This document shows, one piece after another, positions 1 through 38,929 of a stretch of DNA of 64,000 nucleotides. The notes beneath the pieces are model-generated. The model was not told where the DNA came from and made no database searches. It was given only the letters and a program-made list of their open reading frames with translations. The stretch comes from an uncultured Planctomycetales bacterium. GTDB taxonomy: Bacteria; Omnitrophota; Gorgyraeia; Gygaellales; Profunditerraquicolaceae. Both the position numbers and the translations under genes were made by a program. The stretch covers positions 25,721 through 89,720 of the forward strand of contig CAZJFL010000006.1 of the NCBI GenBank assembly GCA_964545575.1. The letters run 5' to 3'. Each line of letters begins with the position of its first letter. Within the stretch, counting starts at the first letter, position 1.

Positions 1-2311
1 ATTTTTGGCAATCGGTAGTTTGTCTCCTGCTCAAGGAGAATCTTTATCGCCCGAAGCGCAAGCGAACGCGCAGGAAGCCACCCTTAAAACAGTCACCGCC
101 ATAGAAGTAAAAGGCAATAAGTCTATCAGTGCCAATACCATTATTTCCAAAATGAAGATCAGGATCGGCGGCGCATATCAGGAGAACGTGGTAAGCGATG
201 ATTTAAAACGCCTTTATCTTTTAGGTTTTTTTAGCGATATAAAAATCGATACCGAAGATTATAAAGGCGGAGTGAAAGTGATCGTGACAGTAGTAGAAAG
301 GCCGATCATCGAAAAAATAACCTTTTCCGGGATAGAACGCCTGCCGATGAAGGAAGAGAAAATACGGGAAGCTTTAAAAACCCGCCAGGGGCAGTATTTA
401 GATTATCCTGCCCTCACCGAAGATGTAGGGACTATAGCTAAGATGTACGAAAAAATAGGTTATATCCAGGCCAAGATAGATTACGAGGTAGATCTGAATA
501 AAGAAACCAATAAAGCAAAGGTGCAATTTAACGTGGTAGAAGGTAAAAGAGTTAAGGTCAGGAGCATATCCATTACCGGAAACAAGAGTTATCCGGCTAT
601 TCGCCTGATCAGGTTAATGAAGACAAAACCAGCCTGGCTTTTTAACCCCGGGGTCTTAAAAGACGAAGTCTTGGCGGAAGATATCGAGCGCCTGAAGTCA
701 TTCTACCGGCGGGAAGGTTTTGCGGATATAGCGGTTGATTCCGAAGTTAAAGCTGACCCCAAGAAGCCGTTTTTATATATCTCTATCAGCGTCCGGGAAG
801 GGAAAAAATACCTCGTCGGAAACGTTACTATAAAAGGTAATAAAGATATCCCGGAAAAGGACATTCTGGCAAAACTTAAGGAATGCGTGCCGGGCAAGGT
901 CTATAGCGATGAAGCGATGAAGCAGGATATCGCAAACATTCAGAGCCTTTATTTTGACCGGGGTTACATATTTGCCCAGGTAGAGGAAACTACTTCTCTG
1001 AATACCTATACCGCCCGCACCGATATAATCTATACCATTACTGAAAATGAAGTTGCCTACGTAGATAAAATTAAGATCAGGGGTAATGTTAAAACCAAAG
1101 ATATGGTCATCCGCCGCGAGCTAAGGATTAGGCCGGGAGACAGATTCGACGGAGAGAAGCTCAGGCGCAGCAAGGAGAGGCTGGATAACCTGGCATTTTT
1201 CGAAGAAGTAAGTTATGACACCGAGGATACCACCACCCCCAATAAAAAAGACCTGGTAGTGGAAGTCAAAGAAGCCAAAACCGGGGCCTTTAGTTTCGGC
1301 GGCGGTTACAGTACCGTTGACCAGTTTGTCGGGTTTGTGCAGATTGAGCAAAATAATTTCGACTGGAAGAACTTCCCCTATTTTACCGGCGCCGGCCAGG
1401 ATTTGAAGCTGAGGGCTTCCTTTGGAACGGTAAACAGCGGTTTTGATTTCAGCTTTACCGAGCCCTGGGTCTTTGATTACCCGGTAGCTTTTGGTTTTGA
1501 TGCCTATAAACACAGCACCAAGAGAGAAGAAGATGTGGGCTACGGTTATGACCAGGATATAACCGGAGGGGACGTGCGCGTCGGAAGAGACATCACCGAA
1601 TATATCAGGGGAGATTTAACCTACCGTTACGACCGCATAAAAATCAGTAACATTGACGAGAATGCCAGTCAAGCCTTAAAAGAAGAGGCCGGCACAAATA
1701 ATATCAGCAGCATAGAGCTGGATCTTGCCTATGACAACCGCAATAGTAAGCTTGATCCGGTAAGGGGAAACCTGATTACCGCTGCCATGCAAAATGCCGG
1801 AGGCCCGTTAGGCGCGGATAAAAATTTCTGGAAATTCTACGGCCGGGCTTCGCATTATTTTCCGCTCTTGCGCGGTTCGGCGCTGGAGTTTAGGGGCAGG
1901 CTCGGCATTAGCGGCCCTTACGGCAACTCCGATGATATTCCGCTTTATGAAAGGTTTTTTGCCGGCGGCTCTACTACTATCAGAGGCTATGATGAACGCA
2001 TGGTCGGGCCGATAGACCCCATTTCCAAGGATGCCCTGGGCGGAAGGGCAATGGTCATCGGCAATGTCGAATACCTTTACCCTATTTTTAGTTTCCTGAA
2101 ACTTGCTGTTTTTTACGATACGGGCAATGTCTGGTCCAAGGCAAACGGCATTAAATTAAACGAGTTAAAGTCAGGGATGGGTTTCGGGGTGAGAATTAAG
2201 ACCCCTATCGGGCCGATCATGGTCGATTACGGTATCCCCCTGGATACGCAACCCGGACAGAATAAAAGAGGCAGCGGCAAGTTTCACTTTAATATGAGCA
2301 ATAGTTTCTAG
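1..2311 (+). CDS. bamA: Outer membrane protein assembly factor BamA (Omp85 family), 5'-partial
   Basis: ORF open to the window edge with no signal peptide visible. Repeated POTRA-like segments are followed by a C-terminal beta-barrel ending in a terminal aromatic (…NSF). Sits upstream of skp-lpxD as in the canonical cluster. Confidence 0.88.
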   Translation, partial: FLAIGSLSPAQGESLSPEAQANAQEATLKTVTAIEVKGNKSISANTIISKMKIRIGGAYQENVVSDDLKRLYLLGFFSDIKIDTEDYKGGVKVIVTVVERPIIEKITFSGIERLPMKEEKIREALKTRQGQYLDYPALTEDVGTIAKMYEKIGYIQAKIDYEVDLNKETNKAKVQFNVVEGKRVKVRSISITGNKSYPAIRLIRLMKTKPAWLFNPGVLKDEVLAEDIERLKSFYRREGFADIAVDSEVKADPKKPFLYISISVREGKKYLVGNVTIKGNKDIPEKDILAKLKECVPGKVYSDEAMKQDIANIQSLYFDRGYIFAQVEETTSLNTYTARTDIIYTITENEVAYVDKIKIRGNVKTKDMVIRRELRIRPGDRFDGEKLRRSKERLDNLAFFEEVSYDTEDTTTPNKKDLVVEVKEAKTGAFSFGGGYSTVDQFVGFVQIEQNNFDWKNFPYFTGAGQDLKLRASFGTVNSGFDFSFTEPWVFDYPVAFGFDAYKHSTKREEDVGYGYDQDITGGDVRVGRDITEYIRGDLTYRYDRIKISNIDENASQALKEEAGTNNISSIELDLAYDNRNSKLDPVRGNLITAAMQNAGGPLGADKNFWKFYGRASHYFPLLRGSALEFRGRLGISGPYGNSDDIPLYERFFAGGSTTIRGYDERMVGPIDPISKDALGGRAMVIGNVEYLYPIFSFLKLAVFYDTGNVWSKANGIKLNELKSGMGFGVRIKTPIGPIMVDYGIPLDTQPGQNKRGSGKFHFNMSNSF

Positions 2312-2343
2312 ATGAGGGCATAACTCATGGAGAGGAGAGACAG

Positions 2344-6924: not shown

Positions 6925-7102
6925 GCCGATAAAGGCAAACCCGCCGAAAGGCGGGGGCGCAAAGCCGCAGGCCTAAGGCCGTGAGTTAACGTTGGACGGC
7001 TACGGTAGCTGGGCTGCCGAAGGAGGTCGAGAGGAGTGCTTTCGACTGGCCTTTATCGGCGGTCGTTTTACAAGGAATCCCAACATTTTGTTGGGATTTT
7101 TT
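6925..7102 (+). ncRNA. Candidate structured small RNA (about 178 nt) of unknown family
   Basis: A 12-bp perfect long-range helix (GCCGATAAAGGC 6925-6936 with GCCTTTATCGGC 7049-7060). It encloses a GNRA hairpin CCCGCC-GAAA-GGCGGG and other hairpins. It ends in an intrinsic-terminator-like hairpin plus T-run. Local GC looks well above that of flanking genes. Confidence 0.3.
7076..7102 (+). terminator. Rho-independent terminator-like hairpin (AATCCCAAC-ATTTT-GTTGGGATT + TTTTTTG)
   Basis: Perfect 9-bp stem with a 5-nt loop, followed by a T-run. Confidence 0.45.
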
Positions 7103-7127
7103 GTTAGCAACCCCGTCGATTTCCCAC

Positions 7128-7365
7128 CCATATATTTTGTGGGGCCTGTCTTGGCTATTTTCTCGCGGGGACGCTTGTTGCGTCCCAGCGTGCCGCAATT
7201 GCGTCCTTCGCTTACGCTTCAGGACGCAACCCCTCTTAGTAAGCGCATGGGCTGCGCTCGTCTCCAGCCCCTCGCTCTCACCGAGTATCTATTTAGCGGG
7301 TGAACCGTGCCCGCTCGGGGCTTCCGACGCCCCGCTCTAAAATAGCCAAGCCACCCACAAAATAT
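7128..7365. repeat. Roughly 238-bp segment bounded by about 33-nt imperfect terminal inverted repeats (MITE-like, or domain 2 of a large RNA)
   Basis: Left end ATATTTTGTGGGGCC…TTGGCTATTTTCTCGC matches the reverse complement of right end GCTCTAAAATAGCCAAGCCACCCACAAAATAT. This gives nested helices 7130-7143/7352-7363 and 7153-7161/7341-7349. The interior holds two 7-bp hairpins sharing GCGTCC arms and a three-way junction at 7289-7345. Confidence 0.4.
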
Positions 7366-7416: not shown

Positions 7417-7491
7417 TTTAGCGGGTGGCACGGGGATGCTTCGCGAGCGCTATCATAGCGCAAGAAGCGCCCCGTGACAGGACCCGCTAAA
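7417..7491 (+). repeat. Family-2 palindromic element TTTAGCGGGT…ACCCGCTAAA (about 75-nt extended hairpin)
   Basis: Four stacked perfect stem segments (10+7+5+6 bp). The conserved termini recur at 28610-28681 in the same sense relative to the downstream gene. A related unit lies at 7289-7345. Confidence 0.55.
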
Positions 7492-8790: not shown

Positions 8791-10806
8791 ATGGAGCTGA
8801 TTAACAAAGACTTAATTTTAAAAGAAATGCCGTTGTTCGCCGGCCTCACTGCCGAAGAGCGCCGGATCATCAAAGGCAAATGCTCCTTAAGAGACTATAA
8901 AAAAGGCGAAGTCATTTACAAGGAAGGCTCTCCTGCGGATGCGTTTTATTGCGTGGTCCTCGGCCGAGTGGTCATTTATGCCCGGGACAGAGACGGACAG
9001 GAAAAAATCCTGGAATACCTGCACCGCGGAAAATACTTCGGCATTATTTCTCTCCTTACCGGAGAGACGCATTCCGTGACTGCCGAGACTATAAACGACT
9101 GCCTGCTTCTGGTGATTGAGAAAAAGGACTTCGATTATGTCTTAAACAAGGCCCCGCGCTTAGCCATTGACTTAAGCCAGACCCTTTCCCGCAGGCTCAA
9201 ACGTAAAGATATCCACCAGAAGACAATCTTTGAAAGTACGGTGATTTCAGTATTCAGCTCTTATTCCCAAGCGGGTAAAACCGTTTACGCGATGAATCTC
9301 GCCCTGAGCCTGCGCAAAGAGACGCAGAAGAGCCTGGTGATACTGGGTATCCTGCCGCAGGATAAAATCCATAGCCTGCCTAAAAGGCTGGAGAGCGCAG
9401 GAGATTACCGGGTCTTTGATTTATCTTCTTCGGCCGCCAGCACCTCAAGGATTAAAGATTTTATTTTAAAAAACAGGTTTGCGGTAGATTTAATCTGCTT
9501 AAGCTATAACCCCGAAGATTATTCCTGCGTCAGGAAGCTGGTTGAGATTTTAAGCCTCCTGGTGAATGATTACCATTACCTGATTTTAGACCTGCCTTCC
9601 TCGATGGACAGGCCGGTTTTTAGCATCTTGAACCAATCCGATTTGATCTATATGCTGACCGGCCCGGAGCCGGTAGATTTGAAGCGTACCCAGCACCTGA
9701 TAGCAAAACTTAAGAAAGAGTTTCATTTTCAGGAAAGCAAGATCAGGGTGGTGATCAACGAATATAAACTTTCCAAGCTTAGCCACGAGGAGCTGATCGG
9801 GCTATTGAAGCAAAATATTTCGGCTACTTTGCCGAGAATAGAATTTGGCGCCGGGGACAGGTTGATTTTGGATAATCCTGATTGCGAATACTCCAAAGCA
9901 GTCAGGCGCATCGCGCGCCAGATCGGCGATTGCCAGGTAGGCCTGGTGCTCGGCGTGGGGGTAGCTTACGGTTTCTGCCATATCGGGGTATTAAAGGTAA
10001 TCGAGGAAGAAAAAATCCCCGTTGACGTCATTTGCGGTTCCAGTATCGGAGCCCTGATTGCCAGCCTCTGGGCAACCGGAAAATCCGCCCCGGAGATCCT
10101 TGAAATCACTAAAGAGTTTAAGGAGGCAAAATCCATGTGGGGGATGGTGGACTTGACTTTCCCGCTCCTGGGCTTTATCAAAGGCAACAAGCTCCATAAT
10201 TTCCTGAAAAAATATTTGGGCAATAAGACCTTCTATGAGGTTAAGCTTCCCTTAAAGATAATTGCCAGCGACGTAAAAAGAAAAGAGCCGCGCGTCCTGG
10301 ACAAAGGCTTAATCGCGGATGCGATCATGGCCAGCTGTGCCATGCCCGGGGTGTTTGCGCCTTTTAAGTTCAGGGAAGAGATACTTTTTGACGGCGGCAT
10401 CATCAACCCTTTGCCGACTGAACCTTTATTTAAGATGGGGGTTAAAAAGATTATCGCCGTCAATGTCACGCCTTCCCGTCAGGATATCATGCGCCAGTAT
10501 GATTTGCTGAAAGAAAAAATTACGGTTACGATCCCCGAGAGCATCAAGAAGAAAAAGTGGTTTAGCTTACGGCAGTACCTGAAGGATATATTTAAGAATA
10601 ATATCCTGGATATCATTTTTAGTAGCGTCGAAATATTGCAGTCGGAAGTAGCCCAGAAAGAAGCGCAACTGGCAGATGTAGTCCTGCATCCGGACACCGC
10701 CGGTTTATTTTGGCTGGATTTACACAAGGCAGAGGAGTTTGCCAAAAGGGGAGAAACAGAGGCGCGCCGGAACCTGGATAAAATCAAGCAGTTGGTTAAT
10801 GATTAA
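8791..10806 (+). CDS. Three-domain protein: cNMP-binding (CAP_ED) + degenerate ParA/MinD-like domain + patatin-like phospholipase (NTE-like)
   Basis: The N-terminus has the cNMP-binding beta-roll (…FGIISLLTGETHSVTAETI…). The middle has a deviant P-loop (SSYSQAGKT). The C-terminal half has the patatin motifs GxGxxG (GVGVAYGF) and GxSxG (GSSIG), with a DGG. The start overlaps the GH1 stop (TAAATG). Confidence 0.8.
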   Translation: MELINKDLILKEMPLFAGLTAEERRIIKGKCSLRDYKKGEVIYKEGSPADAFYCVVLGRVVIYARDRDGQEKILEYLHRGKYFGIISLLTGETHSVTAETINDCLLLVIEKKDFDYVLNKAPRLAIDLSQTLSRRLKRKDIHQKTIFESTVISVFSSYSQAGKTVYAMNLALSLRKETQKSLVILGILPQDKIHSLPKRLESAGDYRVFDLSSSAASTSRIKDFILKNRFAVDLICLSYNPEDYSCVRKLVEILSLLVNDYHYLILDLPSSMDRPVFSILNQSDLIYMLTGPEPVDLKRTQHLIAKLKKEFHFQESKIRVVINEYKLSKLSHEELIGLLKQNISATLPRIEFGAGDRLILDNPDCEYSKAVRRIARQIGDCQVGLVLGVGVAYGFCHIGVLKVIEEEKIPVDVICGSSIGALIASLWATGKSAPEILEITKEFKEAKSMWGMVDLTFPLLGFIKGNKLHNFLKKYLGNKTFYEVKLPLKIIASDVKRKEPRVLDKGLIADAIMASCAMPGVFAPFKFREEILFDGGIINPLPTEPLFKMGVKKIIAVNVTPSRQDIMRQYDLLKEKITVTIPESIKKKKWFSLRQYLKDIFKNNILDIIFSSVEILQSEVAQKEAQLADVVLHPDTAGLFWLDLHKAEEFAKRGETEARRNLDKIKQLVND

Positions 10807-11018
10807 GTGAGGGCATAAGTTATGCCTGCCTGACCGGTGAGGCAGGGAGGTAGCTATTAGTTGGCTAACCGTCATAACTTATGTGCCCGAACTTACACCG
10901 CACCTTTTAAATATTCAAAAATACTTTAATAAAAAGGTGCGGTGTTAATTCGCGCAAATAACTTACGTCGCTCTTTCAGAGCTTCCGTAAGTTATGCGCT
11001 CATTAAAAGGAGAGGAAG
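10807..11018 (+). repeat. Family-1 structured intergenic element, copy A (three stem-loops)
   Basis: Starts GTGAGGGCATAAGTTATGCC right after the stop codon. SL1 is GGGCATAAGTTATG…CATAACTTATGTGCCC. SL2 is CACCGCACCTTTTA…TAAAAGGTGCGGTG. SL3 is GCGCAAATAACTTACG…CGTAAGTTATGCGC. It ends GCTCATTAAAAGGAG + ATG. Homologous modules lie at 13575, 29472, 30881 and 38930. Confidence 0.55.
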
Positions 11019-13501: not shown

Positions 13502-13573
13502 GCCGAGGTAGCTCAGTGGTAGAGCGCGGCCCTGAAAAGGCCGGCGTGGGGGGTCCGATTCCCTCCCTCGGCA
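13502..13573 (+). tRNA. tRNA-Phe (anticodon GAA)
   Basis: Hand-folded cloverleaf. Acceptor GCCGAGG/CCTCGGC, D-arm GCTC-AGTGGTA-GAGC, anticodon stem CGGCC/GGCCG with loop CTGAAAA, T-arm GGGGG-TCCGATT-CCCTC. No encoded CCA. Confidence 0.85.
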
Positions 13574-13574
13574 T

Positions 13575-13625
13575 AAATGAGCAGACGGCTTACGGAGCGA
13601 AAGCGACGTAAGCCGTAGCTGTTTT
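13575..13625 (-). repeat. Family-1 element fragment (copy D, inverted module)
   Basis: AATGAGCAGACGGCTTACGGAGCgaaagCGACGTAAGCCG is the reverse-orientation counterpart of the 3' module of copies B and C (…CCGTAAATTGTCTGCTCATT). Confidence 0.4.
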
Positions 13626-13667
13626 ATATACTGGCAACCAGCGTCTGCGAATTTATCCCGAGCCTAT

Positions 13668-13696
13668 GCCAAAAATTTTATTCTAAAATTTTTGGC
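13668..13696. repeat. Perfect palindrome GCCAAAAATTTTA-ttc-TAAAATTTTTGGC
   Basis: 13-nt arms with a 3-nt spacer. Confidence 0.6.
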
Positions 13697-13841
13697 AATG
13701 TTTAGGCGAGGGACATATATACAATTTCCAACCTATTATTCCGCAATAAATTACAATCTCCCGGTAACAATCTAGTATCTCTGGTGCCCAAATTGCGCCC
13801 ATCGCAATAATAGTAGAGCTTCTTTTTTAGTTTCGGATATT

Positions 13842-13857
13842 AAATTGCTTACCATTT
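13842..13857 (+). promoter_or_regulatory. Islet promoter/operator motif, copy 1 (AAATTGCTTACCATTT, then TATAAT 17 nt after TTACCA)
   Basis: One of three copies of TAAATTGCTTRCAATTTTG. TATAAT at 13880-13885. Precedes the 32-aa peptide ORF. Confidence 0.45.
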
Positions 13858-13896
13858 TGAGATGGAAGTGGTATAATTATAAAAAAAGAGGAGAAA

Positions 13897-13995
13897 TGAA
13901 AATAGCCATAGTAATTATAATAGTATTGGTAGTTGTTTTATTATTGTGCAAGAAGTTCTGTAAATCTTGTTGCAAAACCGATAAGAAAGAATAAA
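13897..13995 (+). CDS. Hypothetical 32-aa hydrophobic Cys-rich peptide (MKIAIVIIIVLVVVLLLCKKFCKSCCKTDKKE)
   Basis: Not in the ORF track because it is shorter than 60 aa. RBS AAGAGGAG 6 nt upstream. Preceded by motif copy 1 and a -10. One TM helix plus a CxxCC tail. Confidence 0.3.
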
Positions 13996-14172
13996 TAAGG
14001 TAACTATCCTTGGGAGCTGGAATACTCACCCGCCTCAAAGTAAAGGAACCGCTTAAGTAACCTAGCCCAGCCCCCATTTTTTCAATTCTTATAACTCGTT
14101 TTAATCGCAATAATTATATATATCTTTGTGATACTCTACAGATAAAAAAATAGAGAGGGGGCTTGAAGGCAG

Positions 14173-14364
14173 TTATTTAGGCGGTTCGTATTCCTCGTAA
14201 ATATCTTTTTTCATCTTTATTGTTTCTTTTAATCTGAATACCTCCTCGTCAAGTATATTTGTTTTGCTCCTTATTTTGGTTATTTCTTCAGTAATTAGCC
14301 GGTAACGGATTTCAAAACCCAAAAGAATAGCTAAAATGCATATAATGACAAATATCACATTCAT
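14173..14364 (-). CDS. Small membrane protein (N-terminal TM helix + coiled-coil)
   Basis: AGGAGG RBS on the minus strand (GAAAAGGAGGCGGTATG). 63 aa. Confidence 0.45.
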   Translation of the reverse strand: MNVIFVIICILAILLGFEIRYRLITEEITKIRSKTNILDEEVFRLKETIKMKKDIYEEYEPPK

Positions 14365-14498
14365 ACCGCCTCCTTTTCTTTAATTATATCATTAAAAATA
14401 AACAGATAAAAATAATTATATTATGAGGAAACTGCCTAATTTTCTCTTGCCAAATCCCCCCCCAGCCACCCCTTGTTATAACCATAAACCCGCTCGCT

Positions 14499-14514
14499 AA
14501 ATTGCTTGCAATTT
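14499..14514. promoter_or_regulatory. Islet palindromic motif, copy 2 (AAATTGCTTGCAATTT)
   Basis: Near-perfect 6-4-6 palindrome between divergent genes 14364(-) and 14735(+). Confidence 0.45.
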
Positions 14515-14734
14515 TGGAATTAAAGTAGGACAATTCTATTATAAAAAGGAGGGAGGTTATTAAGCCGAAGTGGCTAGAAAATGCGGCTGCTCTCTCTTAA
14601 GAACTGGTACAACTTATAGGGGCAGGTCATTATAACATTTCTTATTACATATGGTTACATAAACTGTCTAGTGTTTTGTGCCTACTGTTTTACTTCCCAT
14701 TTGCAAAATAGATTGATAAAAGGGAGATAATGCG

Positions 14735-15121
14735 ATGGCAAAGTACAGCGTGTTTTTTACGGGGGTGTGTATAGCGGCTTTGGGTATTTTGTTTCTGGGG
14801 CAGAATATATGCAATGCTTCATGTGAAGAGGAGTGCAAAGTTTCTAAGAGCTGCCTGAGTTATTCCGACTGTAATACCGCTCATGTGCAGTGCCTGGCTG
14901 CCTGCAAGGAAAAGGAAGCTTGGGATTTTGCGTCGAAGTCATACGAGAAAACTGTCGAGATCCAATCAAAGCTGATTGAGCATCTAGAAGGCCAGAATGT
15001 CGCTCTTGAAAGACTGCTTACGCTTATCGACTCTCTTATTACAAAAATCACCAAGATGAACTCGGAAAGCGAAGCCGGGCAGCAGCAAGGGCAAATTCAG
15101 GTAGAGCTGAATAAAGAATAA
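14735..15121 (+). CDS. Secreted/membrane-anchored Cys-rich coiled-coil protein (8 Cys in CxxxC-type spacing)
   Basis: N-terminal hydrophobic segment, then CNASCEEECKVSKSCLSYSDCNTAHVQCLAAC, then a heptad-like C-terminus. RBS GGGAGA. Confidence 0.5.
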   Translation: MAKYSVFFTGVCIAALGILFLGQNICNASCEEECKVSKSCLSYSDCNTAHVQCLAACKEKEAWDFASKSYEKTVEIQSKLIEHLEGQNVALERLLTLIDSLITKITKMNSESEAGQQQGQIQVELNKE

Positions 15122-15206
15122 AAGTAGGATATTTTTAGACAGGGGATGTTCCTCGGATGGGCACTCTATTTATGTAAAGAAGGTAGATAGTTTATATAAC
15201 TCACTA

Positions 15207-15222
15207 AATTGCTTACAATTTT
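15207..15222 (+). promoter_or_regulatory. Islet promoter/operator motif, copy 3 (AAATTGCTTACAATTT; TTACAA-17-TATAAT)
   Basis: -10 TATAAT at 15236-15241. Precedes the OMP gene. Confidence 0.5.
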
Positions 15223-15285
15223 GAAAAGAAAGCGGTATAATAAAATAATAAAGAATCAATTAAAGAGAAAAAAGGATGGTGGCTG

Positions 15286-16143
15286 ATGAAGAAATTATTT
15301 TCCTTGTCGGCATTATGTGCGTTATTTATATCAGTAGCCGGTTTAGCTACGCCAGCCTACGCTGGTAAATTTAACCTGAGTGCAGGAATAGGGATTGAAT
15401 ATATGAAGTATGAGGAACACTTTCCGGAGGATGCGTTAACCCCTTTTCCCGTAGATTCCGATGCCGAAGTGATCAATACCGTCGCTAGCGCTGTAGCCGA
15501 ATATACTTTCAATAATAAATTTTTTCTGGGAGCCAAGGGCGCAATCCCAGTCGGTAAAGGCGACGATACCGAAGAGTGGGAAGAGGCGGGTTTCCTTTTC
15601 CAGACTAATGACCTGGAGTACGGCTGGACGAGGGCTGATGCCTACGCCGGTTATACTTTCGCATTTCAAGGAGAAGATGTTATCGCTAACGAATTTTCTC
15701 CGTTTATAGGCATACGTTCTTCTTGGGCCAAGCAGGAGAGGAGTAATTTTGTAGTGGTGGGGGTTCCTACCCCCGGCCTTACGGCCACCGAAAAAATTAA
15801 TTCCTATGGGACGATCTTGGGCTTTAAGGCAGTAAATAGTTTATTCGATCAAAAGCTAGTCATCGGCACTAATTTTGAATGGGTTTTTCCTTTTGATGTG
15901 GAAGTTACTAACACAGCGATTCCCGGCATGGAGATAAATGCTAAAAAAGGATACACCTGGAAATTAGGGATAAGCGGGGCATATATTCTCTCCGAGCGTT
16001 GGTCAATTGGTAGCGAACTATATGGCGGCAGGATGCATTGGAAGGGAAGCGATTGGGTCCCCTATGGAATCGGTTTCGTAAAATGGCCGAGTAATGATAC
16101 CACCTATTTCGGCGGCAACGCGTCTTTGACCTATAAATTTTAA
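15286..16143 (+). CDS. Putative outer-membrane beta-barrel protein
   Basis: Signal peptide …ATPAYA↓. Alternating amphipathic strands. C-terminal …LTYKF with terminal Phe, an OMP signature. Confidence 0.6.
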   Translation: MKKLFSLSALCALFISVAGLATPAYAGKFNLSAGIGIEYMKYEEHFPEDALTPFPVDSDAEVINTVASAVAEYTFNNKFFLGAKGAIPVGKGDDTEEWEEAGFLFQTNDLEYGWTRADAYAGYTFAFQGEDVIANEFSPFIGIRSSWAKQERSNFVVVGVPTPGLTATEKINSYGTILGFKAVNSLFDQKLVIGTNFEWVFPFDVEVTNTAIPGMEINAKKGYTWKLGISGAYILSERWSIGSELYGGRMHWKGSDWVPYGIGFVKWPSNDTTYFGGNASLTYKF

Positions 16144-16177
16144 TTAGCTTAAGCATACTTTATTCCCCGTTAGTTTT

Positions 16178-16219
16178 ATCCCCTTTTTACGTTTATTAAA
16201 CGCAGAAAGGGGATTTTTT
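16178..16219 (+). terminator. Rho-independent terminator (ATCCCCTTT…AAAGGGGAT + T6)
   Basis: 9-bp stem and T-run downstream of the OMP gene. Confidence 0.6.
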
Positions 16220-16497
16220 ATCTCTAACTCGCCTTCCGGGAAGATCAGATTACCCTCTCTTTAGAAAGAATTCTTTAAAGCAAGGGACACTCTTACTTTG
16301 CCTTAAGAACCGTCCCTGAATTTAGGTGTTAGATTTTGCCACCCCTTGCGTCTATTATAGCAGGAGGGCGAAATGAAGCCAACCAAGCAGCTAATCCAAG
16401 AAACTAAGGTTATTTTAAATTAAGGATATCTGTAGCTCCAGAAAAACGACCAATAATAATCCGGTAATTGAGGCCAAGAGGTTAAAAAAAAGAAAGA

Positions 16498-17040
16498 GTG
16501 CAGGAAAGGCGGGTTATCCCGGATAGCGAATTATTCAAATTCTTTGAAGAGGCTAAGAAGAGAAGCGAGCGGGTAAATTGGTATGGGTATTTCGTAACTT
16601 TGTATATGACTTGCTCAAGAGTAAGCGAAATAACCTCCCTCAAGAAATCGCAGATTAAAAATGGTATTATACAATTTCATAAAACTAAAGCTAAACCAAA
16701 AGCCGTCTTTATACACCCTCAATTAAGGCCTATTTTAGAAGAGGCCATTAAACGCTCAAAGGTTGAGCTGGTATTTCCTAATATAAATGGGGAAGAGATA
16801 AACCGCAGGAAGATAAGGGATAGAATGATAGAGCTATGTCGCCTGGTCGGGATACCTAAGGCCACGCCACACGATTTAAGACATACTTTTGCCAGCAGAA
16901 TTGATATAGAAAGCTATGTAAAACAAAAGATAGGTGGTTGGGTTAATAAAAGAGTGCTGGAGGATACCTATAACCATCCGGCAGAGGATATTGTAAGACA
17001 GGCATATTTCGGGGTTGATTTAATGCCTAAGTCAGAATAA
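16498..17040 (+). pseudogene. Truncated tyrosine recombinase/integrase (catalytic domain only)
   Basis: Box I Arg (CSRVSE), HDLRHTFAS (H-x-x-R) and …GW…EDTYNH (catalytic Tyr) are present. The reading frame opens only 12 nt upstream of the GTG (TAA at 16483), so the roughly 100-aa N-terminal core-binding domain is absent. Confidence 0.65.
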
Positions 17041-17123
17041 ACGCCACACTAACGCCACAAGGGGTTGACTAAATGAATAAACTATATTATAATTCAAGGA
17101 GTTATCACAGAGGGGGTGCTTTA

Positions 17124-17135
17124 TCCCTCCCTCGG
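17124..17135 (+). repeat. att-like direct repeat of the tRNA-Phe 3' end (TCCCTCCCTCGG)
   Basis: 12/12 identity to 13560-13571, and 15/17 with flanks. Lies 84 nt past the integrase stop. Confidence 0.4.
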
Positions 17136-17148
17136 TACCACCTAAAAA

Positions 17149-17176
17149 GAGAGGGTTTTCATAACCCCTCTTTTTT
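17149..17176 (+). terminator. Rho-independent terminator (GAGGGTT-ttcat-AACCCCTC + T6)
   Basis: Hairpin plus T-run. Confidence 0.55.
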
Positions 17177-17426
17177 ATTATAGTTGTAGCGTAATGGGCT
17201 GTAATTTAAGTAGTTGCGGGGCCTGGTAAGTTTTTGCGGACCCCTTGATTCTTAGTGGCGCGTTAATAGCCACAGAATTATAATCTGTGAAGAGGCGATG
17301 GATGCATAGCCTTGGATATATTTCAAAAGTATTCTCATAAGTGCTTGCTTATGATATAATTGTCGAAAGCAGTTTCAATGAAAAAGATGATAGACAAAAA
17401 TTTCCTTTAATGCCCTAGAGGCAATC

Positions 17427-18173
17427 GTGTATATGTTAGAGAATATTTGTAAACAAGCTATATTTGAAGGAAAAAAAATTGATTTAACAGGCTGTAATTA
17501 TGGAAGCCGCGATTATGAATTTCCCCATCAGAAAGTGGATTTTATCGATACGCCATGTCCGTATTATTTTTTTCTCGCAGGCCTTGTTAGATCTCAAAGA
17601 TTGACCAATATATTAGAGATAGGAACGAATTGGGGAGGCTCTATCATGTCATTGAGCAGGGGATTACATAGTCAAGACCTCGGGAAAAGTAAACTGGTCA
17701 CAGTGGACATAACTTATGCGAATGAGGAAGGTTTTAAAAAGTATCCCCACATCAAAAGAATATACGGAGACGCGTTAAATAAAAAAGTGGTAAAGGAAGT
17801 TGTAGCGTGTTTCAACAAGGATATCGACTTAATGTTTATTGATTCGGTACACGAATATGAGCATGTAAAGCTGTGCCTATATATTTACGCTAATATGCTA
17901 AAACCAAAATATATAATTCTTGATGACATATGTTACAATTACTCGATGAGAAAGTTATGGTTAGAGTTAACGAAAGAATTCGGGAATAGAGCTTTTGATG
18001 CGACAGAAATAAGCATGAGAGAGCGGGAAGCGGGTCTCGGTATCATTGATTGGGGGCATGCTACTTGGCGATACCGGAAATATAAAATATATTGGATTAA
18101 AATGTGCTCTATAAAGATAAAAATTTTAAATCGTATTCTTACGCTTATCCCCAAATATGCCCATCCAATGTAG
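17427..18173 (+). CDS. Class I SAM-dependent methyltransferase-like protein (CmcI/Methyltransf_24-like)
   Basis: Motif I LEIGTNWGGS, acidic motif II VDI, motif IV FIDSVH. AT-rich codon usage continuous with the islet. Confidence 0.5.
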   Translation: MYMLENICKQAIFEGKKIDLTGCNYGSRDYEFPHQKVDFIDTPCPYYFFLAGLVRSQRLTNILEIGTNWGGSIMSLSRGLHSQDLGKSKLVTVDITYANEEGFKKYPHIKRIYGDALNKKVVKEVVACFNKDIDLMFIDSVHEYEHVKLCLYIYANMLKPKYIILDDICYNYSMRKLWLELTKEFGNRAFDATEISMREREAGLGIIDWGHATWRYRKYKIYWIKMCSIKIKILNRILTLIPKYAHPM

Positions 18174-18226
18174 AAACATCCCTAAATAAAACTAAACATC
18201 AATAAACATCCGGACAATCCAATTTA

Positions 18227-18253
18227 TTGACAATAAAGTTGTTATGTTATAAT
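18227..18253 (+). promoter_or_regulatory. Sigma70-like promoter (TTGACA-15-TGtTATAAT)
   Basis: Consensus -35 and extended -10 upstream of the oxidoreductase gene. Confidence 0.4.
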
Positions 18254-18393
18254 ATGTTGTATCGACGGCGCGTTTAGCTGCAGGCAAAGGCAGTTAAAAA
18301 GAGAGGTTTTTGTAGTTCTCCCTTTTTATTTACAGTAATGCATGATGCAGGTATACTATAAAGAATAAATAGTTAACTTTTCGGATAAATTTT

Positions 18394-19938
18394 ATGCTTA
18401 ACAATAATTATGATGTGATTGTAATCGGAGCGGGAATGGGCGGGCTGACCTGCGCCCTGAAATTGGCCGCAGCCGGCAAGAAGGTTTTAGTCCTAGAAAG
18501 GCAGCCGGCACCGGGAGGCATTGCCACAAGTTTTAAGCGCAACGGCTTTACTTTTGAGTCAGTACTGCATTATGTGGACGGGCTTGCTCCTGATGGCGAA
18601 ATACGGAATTTCCTAGATGAGCATGGCGTAAGCAAGAAGGTTGATTTTATAGAAGTAAAAGAATTCGGCAGGGTGATTTATCCGGAACATGATTTCCTGA
18701 TCAGGAACGATTTTGATTCCCTTAAGCTGTGGCTAAAAAGTAATTTCCCGCAGGATGAAGAGGGGATAGAAAGGTTCTTTCGCGATATAGATAAGTTTTA
18801 CCGACAGTTAGACCGTTTCGCAGAATCTAGGATCCCGGATTGGCTTAAACTTCTTCTCTCTCCGTTTATTTACCCCTCGATAATAAAGACATCCTGCCTT
18901 ACCTTAGAGCAGTTCATTACCAAGAGGATTAAAGATAAGCGGGCGCGCTCTATCATCGGTACCATCTGGGGTTTTCTCGGGCCTGCGCCTTCGGAAATAT
19001 CTGCGTTTTATTTTTTAATCGTATTCAGGGGCTGCTGGGGGGAAAGCACGGCGTTTATCAAAGGGGGCTTCAGCAGTTTATTTAATGCCATAGTAGAAAG
19101 AATCAGAGAGTTGGGTTCAGAGGTAAGATTTAATAGTGTGGTCAAAGAGATTATTACCGGACAAAACAGGCGTGTCCGGGGAGTGCGGACAATAGACGGC
19201 GAAGAATTTACGGCTTCTGCGGTGATTTCAAATGCCAACGCTCTCGATACGCTCGCCAAGCTCATTGATTGTGATCCGCTTAAGGAAGCCTATGCCCAAA
19301 AGCTTTCTTCGATGAAAAAATCGCTTTCCGGCACACAGCTTTATCTGGGATTAGATATTCCCATAACAACACTGGGGATGTCCCATATACTTATGTGCAT
19401 TAATACTACCTATGACCATGATCAGAATTGCAGGTATTGTATTTGCAGCGATTACCAACGCTGTAATCTCCTGGTGACGAGCCACTCCCAGCTTGACCCG
19501 GGATTAGCCCCATCTGAAAAATCTACGCTTTACGCGATGACTCTGGATAATTATGCAAACTGGGATAATCTGACACCGGAAGAGTACGAAAAGAAGAAAA
19601 AGGAGTTCGCCGATATTATTTTGGCGCGCCTGGAAAAATATCTACCGGGTATCTCGGGCCATATTGAGATTTTAGAAGTAGCTACTCCTAAGACAATGGA
19701 GAAATTTGGTTTGCTGGCAGAGGGAGCGTTGTATGGGTTTGCCCAGACCCCGGGGCAATCCAGCATCAACCGTCTCAGTCAGGAGACTAAAATTAAAGGC
19801 CTGTTTCTTGCCGGCGCCTGGACTCAGCCGGGTGCCGGAATACACGGTTGTCTTGTTTCGGGCCAAGATGCGGCGGATTCGGTTTTAAAATTACTTAAAA
19901 AAGCAAAAACCCAGCCCCCGCGTGCAGGGGCTGGGTAG
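18394..19938 (+). CDS. FAD-dependent oxidoreductase, phytoene-desaturase/amine-oxidase (CrtI-like) family
   Basis: N-terminal dinucleotide-binding motif DVIVIGAGMGGLTCALKLAAAGKKVLVLE. 514 aa. Confidence 0.75.
   Translation: MLNNNYDVIVIGAGMGGLTCALKLAAAGKKVLVLERQPAPGGIATSFKRNGFTFESVLHYVDGLAPDGEIRNFLDEHGVSKKVDFIEVKEFGRVIYPEHDFLIRNDFDSLKLWLKSNFPQDEEGIERFFRDIDKFYRQLDRFAESRIPDWLKLLLSPFIYPSIIKTSCLTLEQFITKRIKDKRARSIIGTIWGFLGPAPSEISAFYFLIVFRGCWGESTAFIKGGFSSLFNAIVERIRELGSEVRFNSVVKEIITGQNRRVRGVRTIDGEEFTASAVISNANALDTLAKLIDCDPLKEAYAQKLSSMKKSLSGTQLYLGLDIPITTLGMSHILMCINTTYDHDQNCRYCICSDYQRCNLLVTSHSQLDPGLAPSEKSTLYAMTLDNYANWDNLTPEEYEKKKKEFADIILARLEKYLPGISGHIEILEVATPKTMEKFGLLAEGALYGFAQTPGQSSINRLSQETKIKGLFLAGAWTQPGAGIHGCLVSGQDAADSVLKLLKKAKTQPPRAGAG
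19910..19935. terminator. Bidirectional terminator hairpin (CCCAGCCCC-cgcgtgca-GGGGCTGGG)
   Basis: 9-bp perfect stem between convergent genes. A-run on one side and T-run on the other. Confidence 0.55.
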
Positions 19939-19958
19939 TTTATCTGGTTGCTCTAAAT

Positions 19959-20159
19959 TTATATTCTGGTTACGTTGGTCGCTTGTTCTCCTTTGGGCCC
20001 TTGAGTGACCTCGAATTCTACTTCCTGGCCTTCTTCCAGGCTTTTATAGCCGTCACCTTTAATTGCGCTATAGTGCACAAACAGGTCTTTGCCGTCTTCG
20101 CTGGTGATAAAGCCATAACCCTTTTGGTTCGAAAACCACTTTACTTTGCCTTTTGCCAT
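19959..20159 (-). CDS. cspA: Cold-shock protein, CspA family
   Basis: 66 aa with RNP1 KGYGFI and RNP2 VHYS motifs. Long 5' UTR. Confidence 0.9.
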
Positions 20160-20345
20160 CAGTTACCTTTCACCTCCCCTCATAATGAAAAAACCGCAAA
20201 GCCCTTTTTTAAATTCTATGCTTTACGGTTTTAGAATTACCTGTATCTTTTATACTCATAAACTTTGTTCTGCTTAAAATGAGTATAGCAAGTTTTTAGG
20301 ATTTGTCAATGTTTTTTTAATACCGCTTCTGATAACGAGAATATA

Positions 20346-28609: not shown

Positions 28610-28681
28610 TTTAGCGGGTCCTGTCGCGGCATGTTTCTCGTCGCATCATGCTCCTCAAAACACGCCGCGCCACCCGCTAAA
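28610..28681 (-). repeat. Family-2 palindromic element (TTTAGCGGGT…ACCCGCTAAA), second locus
   Basis: Termini are identical to those of 7417-7491. The interior diverges but remains hairpin-forming. It ends 7 nt before the thpR start codon. Confidence 0.55.
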
Positions 28682-28687
28682 AGAGGC

Positions 28688-29215: not shown

Positions 29216-29262
29216 AGAAAAAGATTAATCTTCAGGGCAAGGTGAAATTCCCGACCGGCGGT

Positions 29263-29348
29263 AGCGCAGAAACGCACACCAAACCATCAATTTGGTTTGG
29301 GTGTTAGCGCAGAAGCGCACACCAATTTATCCTATAAAATTGGGTGTT
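29263..29348 (+). repeat. Tandem duplicated roughly 43-nt insertion in the riboswitch P3 loop
   Basis: Unit 1 is AGCGCAGAAACGCACACCAAAccatcaaTTTGGTTTGGGTGTT. Unit 2 is AGCGCAGAAGCGCACACCAATTTatcctatAAAATTGGGTGTT. The P3 hairpin is usually short. The CACCMAA…TTGGGTGTTA motif resembles the family-1 SL2 module. Confidence 0.6.
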
Positions 29349-29437
29349 AAAGTCCGCGAGCCAAAAAGGCATGAACTGGTGCGAGTCCAGTACCGATGGT
29401 ATAGTCCAGAGGGGAGAAGATTGAAATTACCTTTATA

Positions 29438-29466
29438 CCCGAAGATTCTTTTCGGGTTTTTTGTTT
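29438..29466 (+). terminator. Riboswitch intrinsic terminator (CCCGAAgattcTTTTCGGG + T6)
   Basis: Hairpin plus T-run immediately after the aptamer. Confidence 0.7.
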
Positions 29467-29471
29467 TTAAT

Positions 29472-29671
29472 GAGCAGAAGACTTACGGAGTTCCGAAAGA
29501 GCGACGTAAGTCTTAGTGATAGCGTTATACGAAATTATTCACGTCTGCGAATTAACGCCGCACCTTTTATTTTTTTAAATGCCTTAAAAAGGTGCGGCGT
29601 AAGTTCGCACAAATAAGTTATGTCGATTAGCTCTAGTTAAATAACGGTCTCCATAACTTATGTGCTCACTT
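29472..29671 (+). repeat. Family-1 structured intergenic element, copy B
   Basis: Modules: GAGCAGAAGACTTACGGAG…CGACGTAAGTC; GCGAATTAACGCCGCACCTTTT…AAAAAGGTGCGGCG; ACAAATAAGTTATGTCG…CATAACTTATGTGCTCAC. It overlaps the first ATG of ribBA. Confidence 0.5.
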
Positions 29672-30880
29672 ATGTTCAATTCTATCCAGGAAATAATTCA
29701 GGATTTAAAGAGCGGTTCCCAGGTCATTGTGGTGGATGACGAGAGCCGGGAGAACGAAGGCGACCTGATCATGGCGGCTTCTTTTGTCCGGCCGCAGGAT
29801 ATAAACTTTATGGCCAAGGAGGGGCGGGGGCTCATCTGCGTGCCCATGGAAGAGGAAAGGTTAAGCTATTTACGCCTTGAGCCGATGCTTAAAGACGATG
29901 TTTCTCTGAGCCGGAAAGATCCTTTTTCTACCGCCTGGATGATTTCTGTGGACGCCGCGCGGGGGATAACTACCGGTATCTCTGCGGGCGACCGCAGCCG
30001 CACCATAGAGGCCTTGGCTAATCTTAAGACGACGCCCGAAGAATTGATACGTCCCGGTCATATCTTTCCTTTAAAGGCGCGTAAAGGCGGAGTATTGGTC
30101 AGGGCCGGGCACACTGAAGCAGCGATAGACCTGATGCGCCTCTGTGGGCTATATCCGGTAGCGGTAATCTGTGAGATTATGAACGAAGACGGCACCATGG
30201 CCAGGCTGCCGGAGTTGCTTGAGTTTTCCCGTAAACACAAGCTTAAGATCTGCTCTATTGCCGATTTAATCGAATACCGCAGGCGTTCTGAAAAACTAAT
30301 AGAGCGGGTTTCTGAAACTATACTTCCGACTGAATATGGCACCTACCGGCTGATCTTATACCGGGATTTAATCAGCAGGCAGATGCATATTGCGCTGACG
30401 ATGGGGAAGCTTAACAGCGGCGCTACCCTGGTGCGCGTGCATTCCGAATGCCTGACCGGCGATACGCTGGGGTCTTTACGCTGCGATTGCGGGAAGCAGC
30501 TGGAAAAAGCGATGCAGATTATCGGCCGGGAAAAAAAGGGCGTGCTCCTTTATATGCAGCAGGAGGGTCGCGGCATCGGTTTGGCGGATAAAATCCGCGC
30601 TTATAGCCTGCAGGATAAAGGGATGGATACGGTGGAGGCCAATGAAGCCTTAGGTCATAAGCCGGACCTGCGCGATTACGGTATAGGCGCTCAGATTTTA
30701 GCGGACCTCGGGCTAGAAAATATCCGGCTCTTAACCAATAATCCGCGTAAAATCGTGGGCCTGGAAGGCTATGGTTTAGCTGTCACTGAACGCCTGCCCC
30801 TGGAGGTCAAACCTAATCCTGCAAATTACCGGTATCTAAAGACCAAAAAGGAAAAATTAGGGCACGATTTAAAAATATAA
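29660..30880 (+). CDS. ribBA: Bifunctional 3,4-dihydroxy-2-butanone-4-phosphate synthase / GTP cyclohydrolase II
   Basis: N-terminal RENEGDL…, C-terminal HSECLTGD…CDCG. The second ATG at 29672 (MFNSIQ…) is an alternative start. Confidence 0.92.
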   Translation: MCSLMFNSIQEIIQDLKSGSQVIVVDDESRENEGDLIMAASFVRPQDINFMAKEGRGLICVPMEEERLSYLRLEPMLKDDVSLSRKDPFSTAWMISVDAARGITTGISAGDRSRTIEALANLKTTPEELIRPGHIFPLKARKGGVLVRAGHTEAAIDLMRLCGLYPVAVICEIMNEDGTMARLPELLEFSRKHKLKICSIADLIEYRRRSEKLIERVSETILPTEYGTYRLILYRDLISRQMHIALTMGKLNSGATLVRVHSECLTGDTLGSLRCDCGKQLEKAMQIIGREKKGVLLYMQQEGRGIGLADKIRAYSLQDKGMDTVEANEALGHKPDLRDYGIGAQILADLGLENIRLLTNNPRKIVGLEGYGLAVTERLPLEVKPNPANYRYLKTKKEKLGHDLKI

Positions 30881-31036
30881 GTGAGGGCATAAGTTTGCAC
30901 CCAAAGATACTTTTTAATAGAGATTTGGGTGTTAATTCGCAGACGCTAATAGATAAGTAAAATGATGGATGCTACAATTTACGTCGCTCCTGGAGGAGCT
31001 CCGTAAATTGTCTGCTCATTAAAAGGAGGGAGAAAG
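30881..31036 (+). repeat. Family-1 structured intergenic element, copy C
   Basis: Begins GTGAGGGCATAAGTT right after the ribBA stop. Contains CACCCAAA…TTTGGGTGTTAATTCGC and …TTACGTCGCTC…GAGCTCCGTAAATTGTCTGCTCATTAAAAGGAGGG before the ribH ATG. Confidence 0.55.
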
Positions 31037-34505: not shown

Positions 34506-34580
34506 CGGGGCGTGGCTCAGTTTGGCTAGAGCGCTTGGTTCGGGACCAAGAGGTCGACAGTTCAAATCTGTCCGCCCCGA
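34506..34580 (+). tRNA. tRNA-Pro (anticodon CGG)
   Basis: Hand-folded. Acceptor CGGGGCG/CGCCCCG, anticodon stem CTTGG/CCAAG with loop TTCGGGA, T-arm GACAG-TTCAAAT-CTGTC. Confidence 0.85.
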
Positions 34581-38924: not shown

Positions 38925-38929
38925 TCCCG

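Follow-up and report, generated by a model that had tools for sequence, protein, structure and literature searches.

The 64,000-nucleotide stretch of contig CAZJFL010000006.1 analysed here (positions 25,721 to 89,720; hereafter the window) carries five related intergenic elements, A to E, comprising seven detectable hairpin units and one possible remnant. On balance, we regard them as copies of a long-lived, non-autonomous, hairpin-ended mobile repeat that is restricted to, and widespread in, Omnitrophota, inserts after TAA at junctions between a stop codon and a Shine-Dalgarno sequence (SD), is co-transcribed, and resembles repetitive extragenic palindromes (REPs), bacterial interspersed mosaic elements (BIMEs), and REP doublets forming hairpins (REPINs). 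A sequence-only reading of the window had listed the five copies, and further analysis confirmed that they are a real family and excluded chance. The motif CATAAGTTATG (at most one mismatch) has 12 matches in the window against 1.0 expected from shuffles, and the 22-mer AAAAGGTGCGGYGTTAATTCGC has 4 against 0 expected. A covariance model of the module-3 hairpin (R1), built solely from other genomes and copy A, matched all five copies (Table 1).

The replicating module was shown to be a unit of ~52–60 nt. It is an imperfect hairpin with an invariant core, either TTACG/CGTAA (type I) or TTATG/CATAA (type II), two TC/TC internal loops, and the flanks AATTC...TCATT. Its parts are, in order, stem0 (TTAAT/ATTAA), a TC/TC loop, stem P1 (GCRS/SYGC), a 2-nt bulge or an inserted side hairpin, stem P2 (five variable base pairs plus TTACG/CGTAA), a TC/TC(T) loop, and stem P3 (GC../..GC); A occupies the two positions after TCATTN in 86% and 80% of units, respectively, in agreement with stem0. 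About 24 fixed bases are kept in at least 70 species while the stems covary, and unpaired bases are conserved on both sides of the stem (the TC/TC loops, AATTC, and TCATT). On the complementary, more stable strand, tandem GA/GA takes the place of the TC/TC loops, and the unit consists of a 5′ tag, (A/G)TGAG, a stem with two GA/GA loops, and then GAAYT; a 5′ tag with a hairpin is the anatomy of a tagged REP (PMC3733652, PMC6006769). In two of the loci fetched from other genomes (L138, ~2300–2500, and L124, ~1560–1650), the AATTC-P1...P1′-TCATT frame is kept and the TTACG core is swapped for an unrelated hairpin, suggesting that the ends of the unit, and not its core, may be the minimal conserved part.

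The hairpin is maintained by compensatory change. In an alignment of 36 short-form units, 98.1% of the cells of 16 base pairs are paired and 7 pairs have changed on both sides, while pairing was far lower in all shuffled or slid controls. When 144 distinct units are considered, 97.1% of cells pair, and 13 of the 16 pairs show compensatory change (448 compensatory cells), a level reached by none of 500 shuffles. The covariation is not circular, since the search pattern either had N at the variable positions or did not extend to them. Structure-preserving substitutions, which the earlier reading had not expected of a plain miniature inverted-repeat transposable element (MITE) family, are therefore documented.

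Units occur singly (the commonest arrangement), with a long, lineage-specific hairpin (H2), or as a tails-outward doublet around H2. Of 30 pairs of neighbouring units spaced by at most 220 nt, 28 have their tails outward and not one has them inward. The variable stems of the partners differ in 27 of the 28 tails-outward doublets; therefore, each local hairpin is conserved, not a long palindrome, and both a single long palindrome and an RNase III-type duplex of 44 bp were rejected as the conserved structure. H2 is structure without conserved sequence: 32 of the 33 segments lying between GAAYTTAC and AATTC have fold z-scores below −2 (median −5.6), and at least 20 unrelated arm sequences are represented. 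Copy A had been described as three modules, and its RNA does fold into three separate hairpins (−87.8 kcal/mol, z = −8.8), with the SD unpaired. However, an inverted-repeat comparison showed that the first of them (H1) is an inverted and slightly diverged counterpart of the third (H3), so that composite A is an inverted doublet around H2, and GTGTTAATTCGC, previously placed in the second module, is the 5′ flank of the third. The position and type of H1 are matched in 34 composites of other genomes.

The family is distributed across Omnitrophota, an abundant, uncultivated phylum with very small cells. A scan of one genome per species with an exact pattern, TTACGTCGCT-N4-14-TCCGTAA-N7-GCTCATT, found at least 115 loci from at least 70 species-representative assemblies (counted by accession prefix), often with several loci per genome. 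Nearly all of the matches listed are labelled Candidatus Omnitrophota or Omnitrophica, a phylum of the Planctomycetes-Verrucomicrobia-Chlamydiae (PVC) group, and the remaining ones are “uncultured Planctomycetia/Planctomycetales” bins, one “Nitrospirae”, and one unclassified bin. Unit-bearing contigs are thus held by L047 (JACQXE01, labelled Nitrospirae), L026 (“bacterium”), and ~20 “Planctomycetia/Planctomycetales” third-party annotation bins. Where testable, the differently labelled bins are as near to the window as the Omnitrophota bins (L027, 66–69% identity over mur genes), and their labels likely reflect mislabelling or contamination. The window is syntenic with several unit-bearing metagenome-assembled genomes at 66–75% nucleotide identity, which suggests that it too comes from an Omnitrophota genome. 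The full three-hairpin composite, with the block order of copy A, is present in 34 of the matches listed. R1 matched 181 times in 0.67 Mb of fetched loci, and 7 units lie in the 64 kb of the window; unit spacing is regular, at ~1 per 9 kb. A structural scan gave 177 units, 138 of type I and 39 of type II, only 7 of which lie inside predicted genes; viral contigs contained no unit match.

The family is apparently undescribed. At gathering score, Rfam 15 matched only the flavin mononucleotide (FMN) and c-di-GMP-I-GGC riboswitches and two tRNAs in the window, none of them for the element, which at E ≤ 10 matched generic long-hairpin miRNA models only, far below threshold. Literature searches on Omnitrophota or Omnitrophica repeats, together with a 2026 preprint reporting 176 complete Omnitrophota genomes (10.64898/2026.06.07.730766), yielded no description of such repeats, and no paper on non-coding DNA of Omnitrophota was found in the searches made. 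The 35-nt pattern, which among the matches listed is almost confined to Omnitrophota, could serve to flag or bin Omnitrophota DNA and to detect mislabelled bins.

Comparison of orthologous junctions provides the evidence of mobility. Junctions are filled in some genomes and empty in others, the junctions themselves vary, units occur in both orientations, and H2 variants are enriched per genome (CAATTGGTGTGGGGG in JBBIPY01 and AAAAGGTGCGG in the window). Such features characterise mobile repeat families, and the earlier proposal of cassettes “rather than MITEs” is not supported. L042 lacks copy A at the orthologous junction, where a 45-nt spacer contains the same AAAAGGAGG. A metagenome scan for RibH gave 80 related loci, 6 of which carry units. 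The ribBA-ribH junction, which reads TAA|GTGAGG...GCTCATT|AAAAGGAGGGAGAAAGATG in the window, is empty in the closest relatives, L122 and L123 (RibH 81–83% identical), where it reads TAA|AAAAGGAGGAAAGATG and TAA|AAAGGGAGG. The empty site, TAA|AAAAGGAGG, has the exact flanks of copy D, with a 3-nt ambiguity left by the A-rich flanks. L124 (with two in tandem), L125, L138 (whose core is replaced), and L145 have other variants at this junction. Between ribH and nusB, the window has an empty junction; those of L122, L129, and L138 are occupied. The occupied junctions of the adk-infA-rpsM-rpsK-rpsD-rpoA operon also differ between genomes. In a wider comparison, 8 orthologous junctions were shared and ~35 likely orthologues were not, a shared count that is too low, since a bulged unit before L025 ribH was missed.

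The leader of ribBA shows the same pattern. Empty FMN-leader sites keep TTTTT-AAGGAG-N3-ATG, and the relatives L123 and L136 have AAGGAG before the ribBA ATG. An inverted element lies on the T-run of the FMN terminator in at least eight lineages, and the SD has been lost in three of them, including that of the window. The place and orientation of the TTACG unit of copy C recur in L083, L122, L124, L129, L134, L145, and L146. In the window, the FMN riboswitch (29224–29425, 92 bits) and its terminator (together 29224–29466) are separated from ribBA by the 205-nt copy C, and an in-frame ATG at 29660 inside the copy C unit would add MCSL to RibBA.

At these junctions, new copies appear to land directly 3′ of TAA, mostly a stop codon, in small gaps between the stop and the SD or ATG, with no duplication longer than 3 nt. 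As a result of insertion at this position, the element seems to fill the whole gap and to “carry” a stop codon and a ribosome-binding site (RBS). The earlier reading had described the elements as filling whole intergenic gaps; they do run from the stop to the RBS or ATG, but the upstream TAA lies inside the terminal stem. Of the two copies said to start after a stop codon and to end at the next start, copy A does run from a TAA stop, whereas copy C begins after the terminator of the FMN riboswitch. The element does not usually supply the downstream RBS, as had been supposed; empty sites already carry AAAAGGAGG beside the stop codon. The left border, TAA-(A/G)TGA, holds stops in two reading frames, and the upstream gene uses either.

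Orientation was scored against transcription for units between co-directional genes on contig fragments. Type I (TTACG) units are found 80 times in sense and 20 times in antisense (p = 1e-9), and type II (TTATG) units 5 times in sense and 23 times in antisense (p = 9e-4). Orientation relative to genes is thus far from the random pattern that the sequence-only reading had associated with plain MITEs; these counts place type II units antisense on the upstream stop codon and type I units facing the downstream start. The distance from tail to start is bimodal: 57 starts led by an SD lie at +12 to +16 and 29 ATGs without an SD at +1 to +4, with 3 others. The recurrent host operons beside units are housekeeping only (leuA/C/D/B-ilvC, adk-infA-rpsM/K/D-rpoA-rplQ, and infC-rplT), and no accessory gene or transposase family is enriched among the neighbours of units.

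Start sites were surveyed in 514 genes of loci L001–L115 and the window. An SD-led start (GGAG, GAGG, or AGGA) was found in 64% (57/89) of genes directly behind a type I unit, compared with ~44% of genes without a nearby unit. SD-less starts are ordinary in these genomes (56% of the 514 genes). A role of the element's tail as a special replacement of the SD was rejected, since 56% of genes with no unit close by likewise have a start that is not led by an SD. In the SD-less cases, an SD before the left border is not enriched (6/27 versus 13/46), and the idea that an upstream SD is brought back by folding (“looped-out coupling”) was rejected for that reason. Ordinary operon gaps here are 1–20 nt. 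The tight packing of stop and start around the element needs no RNA function, because an insertion after the stop in such a gap must touch the SD or the ATG.

Other functions of the element were also considered. TAAGTT-like −10 hexamers are present, but the spacing to −35 varies from 12 to 19 nt and a consensus scan gave no excess, which argues against a promoter. A terminator was rejected, as no T-run follows any hairpin. A boxA-like NusB/NusE site (GCUCAUUAAA) was set aside; its GC is paired in a stem, and one unit in five (20%) is inverted.

tRNA operons are punctuated by the elements as well. In L059 (2758–3085), a tails-outward doublet exactly fills the tRNA-Cys/tRNA-Leu spacer of a tRNA cluster, and this doublet is conserved in two assemblies (L059; L063 and L111). 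In L051 (88–487), the 5′ half of a tRNA-Met gene (50–124, to the anticodon loop) is repeated three times with a 182-nt period, and each of the first two repeats is followed by a spacer and a type I unit. At the L051 junctions, the unit tail GCTCAT meets an inverted match, ATGAGC, in the anticodon loop.

The elements also present a hazard for annotation, since they overlap stop codons, extend or truncate C-termini, and create spurious upstream starts, and in some lineages the ribBA SD is replaced by the element. In L129 (2520–2570), the element lies within the last ribH codons; 13 extra codons are read from it before a TGA, and the C-terminus of RibH is changed.

For the mobile repeat that we favor, the mechanism would be as follows. 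The unit may move through a folded single-stranded DNA intermediate, acted on by a putative trans-acting enzyme of HUH/Y1 type. Its orientation would be set by the TAA target strand and/or by selection in transcribed operons, and excision would restore TAA|AAAGGAGG. Transcription within polycistronic mRNAs would be tolerated, given compact folds and an unpaired initiation region. The mismatches in the stems bear on which strand folds. Among 885 pairs at the five variable positions, 853 are Watson-Crick, 6 are G:T, 17 are A:C, and 9 are other. Sense units have 5 G:U and 10 A:C mismatches, and antisense units have 1 and 6, respectively. An excess of G:U on the sense strand, a sign of RNA structure, was not found, and the excess of A:C (G:T on the complementary strand) is independent of the direction of transcription. 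The mismatches are few (23) and give no more than a hint that it is a DNA strand that folds.

Several observations weigh against a mobile repeat of this kind. No Y1/RAYT/IS200/IS608 transposase was found by phmmer (three probes) or by an HUH+Y motif scan in 0.83–1.17 Mb, a weak negative, as a single-copy gene would seldom fall within a sample of ~10 kb per genome. No transposition intermediates were seen. The tag is RTGAG, not GTAG/GTGG or CGTC of the described REP superfamilies, and the unit is ~2 times the length of a REP. Conservation of the 24 fixed bases over at least 70 species is tighter and wider than REP-type repeats usually show. Selection at the RNA level could underlie the strong polarity and the two position-split unit types, and a TAA target-site duplication may be compatible with the A-rich flanks. 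Finally, strain-level polymorphism of copy D was not detected among contigs with identical RibH, all of which carry the copy; together with a within-genome copy identity of 73–88%, this indicates slow turnover.

The nearest known kind is the REP/BIME/REPIN group of Enterobacteria and Pseudomonas (PMC3116915, PMC3337134, PMC3733652, PMC6006769). Both are extragenic, imperfect palindromes present in many copies, carry a short unpaired tag at one end, form inverted doublets with a spacer and mosaics with other motifs, and lie mostly between co-directional genes, downstream of coding regions. REP-type repeats cause no target duplication, which the Omnitrophota units apparently share. REPIN populations also consist of diverged, slowly replicating copies that persist vertically, as here at 73–88% identity (10.1101/2021.07.10.451892). 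In contrast, the Omnitrophota unit is 52–60 nt long with two internal loops, while a REP is 20–40 nt, and its (A/G)TGAG tag takes a position similar to that of the REP tag (GTAG/GTGG or CGTC, 0–2 nt from the stem; PMC3733652, PMC6006769). The doublet partners here are two differentiated types that do not pair together, the ~24 conserved bases are phylum-wide, and the placement between stop codon and SD is exact. REPIN-RAYT systems have a single-copy RAYT (Y1 HUH transposase) gene flanked by the repeats; no RAYT was found here in the ~10 kb sampled per genome. Our study would extend the idea of an ancient, vertically inherited replicator, known from REPIN-RAYT, to the PVC group.

Other systems offer partial parallels. 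The IS200/IS605-derived palindrome-associated transposable elements (PATEs) and the class 3 TnpA-Y1 “REPtron-like” systems of Planctomycetes and Acidobacteria (PMC6006769) share subterminal hairpin ends and many atypical secondary structures in a relative of the PVC group. They insert without duplication 3′ of a short, specific sequence, in an orientation set by the target strand, which may hold for the units too. The class 3 foot is CnGA, and no Y1 gene was seen here; the class 3 systems are a lead and not a match. Correia elements (CREE/NEMIS, Neisseria), ERIC, and BOX (PMC2649163, PMC2229807, PMC3049150) are functional analogues only. Correia and ERIC elements are likewise intergenic inverted-repeat elements, of 100–160 nt, that are co-transcribed, form long hairpins, and vary in presence between strains; they affect expression of neighbours via RNase III or promoters (PMC2649163, PMC2229807). 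In contrast, they are genus-level families with TA duplication and near-identical copies, and their ends are not independent covarying hairpins. The BOX element of Streptococcus pneumoniae (PMC3049150) shares modularity (boxA-boxB-boxC), hairpin modules that are missing or multiplied, intergenic location, and transcription. However, BOX has no sequence relation to the units, is found at the species level, and has no reported polarity toward stop codon and SD. The ends of IS200/IS605 elements are not inverted relative to each other. The MIRUs of mycobacteria, reportedly described by Supply and co-workers in 1997, are said to fill intercistronic operon gaps in one orientation, to touch the flanking stop and start codons, and to be tandem direct repeats with small overlapping open reading frames (ORFs) for translational coupling. 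The units have no MIRU-like ORF, with no consistent start or open frame through the unit, and form no tandem array apart from the L051 oddity.

Among the alternatives, a host-beneficial role in RNA is possible, and we hold it at roughly one chance in four: the elements would punctuate operons, and mobility would only spread the cassette. The antisense TTATG unit would protect the 3′ end of the upstream cistron, H2 would be a site for a double-strand-specific RNase, and the sense TTACG unit would cap the downstream 5′ end and present an unpaired SD or a near-leaderless AUG. Such a role would account for the polarity of both unit types, for a tail-to-start distance with almost nothing between its two peaks, and for the SD that stays unpaired when copy A folds. 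Ribosomal-protein and leu operons tolerate the elements, certain junctions are conserved from one genome to another, and the FMN-leader insertion persists in its many lineages even with the ribBA SD lost. There are precedents in REP hairpins, proposed as mRNA stabilisers (PMC3733652), and in Correia elements, which are bound, cleaved, or protected by RNase III (PMC2649163). In contrast, ~20% of units are in the “wrong” orientation, several lie downstream of intrinsic terminators or upstream of promoters, where there would be little transcription, and most orthologous junctions have no unit, as in the RibH loci, indicating that the element is dispensable. G:U pairs are rare and outnumbered by A:C, the packing follows from insertion into short gaps, SD-less starts are the norm, and the inverted symmetry of the doublet is a feature of DNA. 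The term “operon-punctuation” used in the sequence-only reading therefore fits where the elements lie but names a function that is only possible.

A bolder form of this proposal, drawn by analogy with mitochondrial tRNA punctuation and in our view rather unlikely, is that mRNA punctuation is phylum-wide and would depend on a protein or RNase specific to the phylum, which would recognise the hairpin by its TC/TC loops and cleave at the hairpin borders. If this is true, cistrons would have a protected 3′ hairpin and 5′ ends at the SD or 1–4 nt before the AUG (near-leaderless), and the repeat, spread by a dedicated, domesticated single-strand DNA enzyme, would be a mutualistic replicator kept since the origin of the phylum. 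The exact stop-to-start placement and the two position-specific unit types make a host RNA role of REP-like repeats testable with existing metatranscriptomes.

We consider it improbable that the element is an ordinary MITE with terminal inverted repeats, moved as double-stranded DNA by an IS5/PIF-Harbinger-like or IS630-like DDE transposase with duplication of TAA or TA. Its ends are indeed inverted copies (TAA-RTGAGNGCA... and ...TGCNCTCAT-TAA), and a 3-nt TAA duplication would accord with the filled and empty sites. TAA precedes most composites, with ~35% of left ends not preceded by it, and TAA or AAA follows the tail in about half; some composites read TAA...TAA, but in others the right flank is often GAA, TGA, or GGA where the left is TAA. 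Furthermore, a double-stranded mechanism leaves the covarying hairpin at each end unexplained, single units are the commonest arrangement, the copies are old with no recent burst, and no parent insertion sequence with these ends was found in the loci or in viral contigs. A host site at the DNA level, as proposed for BIMEs (for gyrase, an IHF-like or other nucleoid protein, or Xer-type recombination on folded DNA), would accord with the unpaired bases conserved on both stem sides, the strictly Watson-Crick pairing, and the regular spacing, but is very improbable, as placement at gene borders and patchy occupancy among relatives do not suit a chromosome-structuring site and the xerC/D gene beside copy E is a single coincidence.

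The features in the window are listed in Table 1, with gene labels taken from Pfam. Copy A extends from the TAA stop of a gene for a cNMP-binding patatin-like protein to TCATTAAA and is followed by the SD at 11009–11015 (GGAGAGG) and the ATG at 11019. Its first hairpin has the layout GTGAG-GGCATAAGTTATG...CATAACTTATGTGCC-CGAACTTAC, with the upstream TAA stop inside the closing stem TAAGT...ACTTA, and its third reads TTAAT-TC-GCGC-AA-ATAACTTACG-TC-GCTC..GAGC-TTC-CGTAAGTTAT-GCGC-TC-ATTAA. Copy B, once taken for a partial fragment of 50 nt, is an inverted H3 with an H2 (13574–13713) directly after tRNA-Phe (13502–13573), whose 3′ end is abutted by the unit tail. Copy C, between the FMN riboswitch terminator and ribBA, is a full composite (29467–29671) in the orientation opposite to that of copy A (fold z = −6.6); the tail of its TTACG unit sits directly on the terminator T-run, and the tail of its TTATG unit, GCTCACTT, abuts the conserved ribBA start ATG at 29672, without an SD. 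Copy D consists of a TAA stop, a left-end stub, GTGAGGGCATAAGTTTG, a central hairpin, GCACCCAAAGATAC...GATTTGGGTG, and a TTACG-type unit (30932–31023) that carries a side hairpin, followed by an SD at 31024–31031 and an ATG at 31037. Copy E consists of a TAA stop, a central hairpin, CCCGCCCCTTTTT...AAAAGGTGCGGG, and a TTATG-type unit (38976–39072) enlarged by two additional apical hairpins; its tail, TCATT-TA, overlaps the ATG at 39075, and the copy is 80% identical to L049 197–325. The possible remnant has the first 12 nt and the last 5 nt of the element (2312–2332) exactly between the bamA stop and the skp RBS; R1 did not detect it, and it is too short for proof.

Table 1. Hairpin units, composites, and R1 matches in the 64-kb window.
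Feature	Position	Strand	Evidence
R1 match, copy A H3	10947–11004	+	68.9 bits, E = 1e-16
R1 match, copy B	13576–13624	-	52.0 bits
R1 match, copy C	29469–29526	-	29.1 bits
R1 match, copy C	29602–29670	+	53.1 bits
R1 match, copy D	30961–31020	+	36.5 bits
R1 match, copy E	38976–39072	+	41.0 bits, E = 7e-8
Possible collapsed remnant, TAG-ATGAGGGCATAAC-TCAT-GGAG	2309–2332	+	position; 11/12 match to copy A left end
Copy A, full composite	10804–11008	+	sequence, RNA fold
A-H1, TTATG/CATAA-type unit, tail leftward, branched apical insertion	10804–10895	-	sequence, fold
A-H2, central long hairpin, CCGCACCTTTT...AAAAGGTGCGG	10897–10944	.	sequence, fold
A-H3, TTACG/CGTAA-type unit	10945–11008	+	R1, 68.9 bits
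Copy B unit, TTACG type, inverted, with inserted side hairpin	13574–13655	-	R1, 52.0 bits; sequence
Copy B central hairpin, other sequence family, CCCGAGCCTA..GCCAAAAATTTT...AAAATTTTTGGC..TAGGCGAGGG	13657–13713	.	sequence
Copy C TTACG-type unit, inverted	29467–29555	-	R1, 29.1 bits
Copy C central hairpin, CGCCGCACCTTTT...AAAAGGTGCGGCG family, same as copy A	29556–29599	.	sequence, fold
Copy C TTATG-type unit	29600–29671	+	R1, 53.1 bits
Copy D, between ribBA and ribH	30878–31023	+	R1, 36.5 bits
Copy E, between metallo-beta-lactamase-fold gene and xerC/D	38922–39074	+	R1, 41.0 bits

The window also contains features apart from this family. A second, unrelated long-hairpin family, built on TTTAGCGGGTG...CACCCGCTAAA, occurs at 7283–7345, 7417–7491, and 28611–28682, and the apical motif of the units, TTCGCT...GCTTC, recurs in a hairpin at 7199–7229 (R1 14.8 bits, E = 0.23). 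A c-di-GMP-I-GGC variant riboswitch aptamer (6925–7022, 73 bits) lies upstream of a 103-codon ORF (6992–7303). After tRNA-Phe and copy B, a stretch of low GC content (13600–20300; 41–42% versus 46–48%) holds a truncated phage-integrase ORF (16498–17040), ORFs without Pfam matches, and, at 13836, 14493, and 15200, three copies of a promoter-like repeat of 53 nt that ends in GGTATAAT. This stretch resembles what is left of an island targeted to a tRNA gene. At 34506–34704, the 3′ end of tRNA-Pro(CGG) and its flank recur after the gene as an exact 22-nt direct repeat, GTCCGCCCCGATTAAATAAATG (~34570 and ~34683), which resembles att sites left by an integrated element. Short runs of the heptamer CGCATAT, inverted relative to each other and 17 kb apart, are found at 43333–43368 and 60420–60455.

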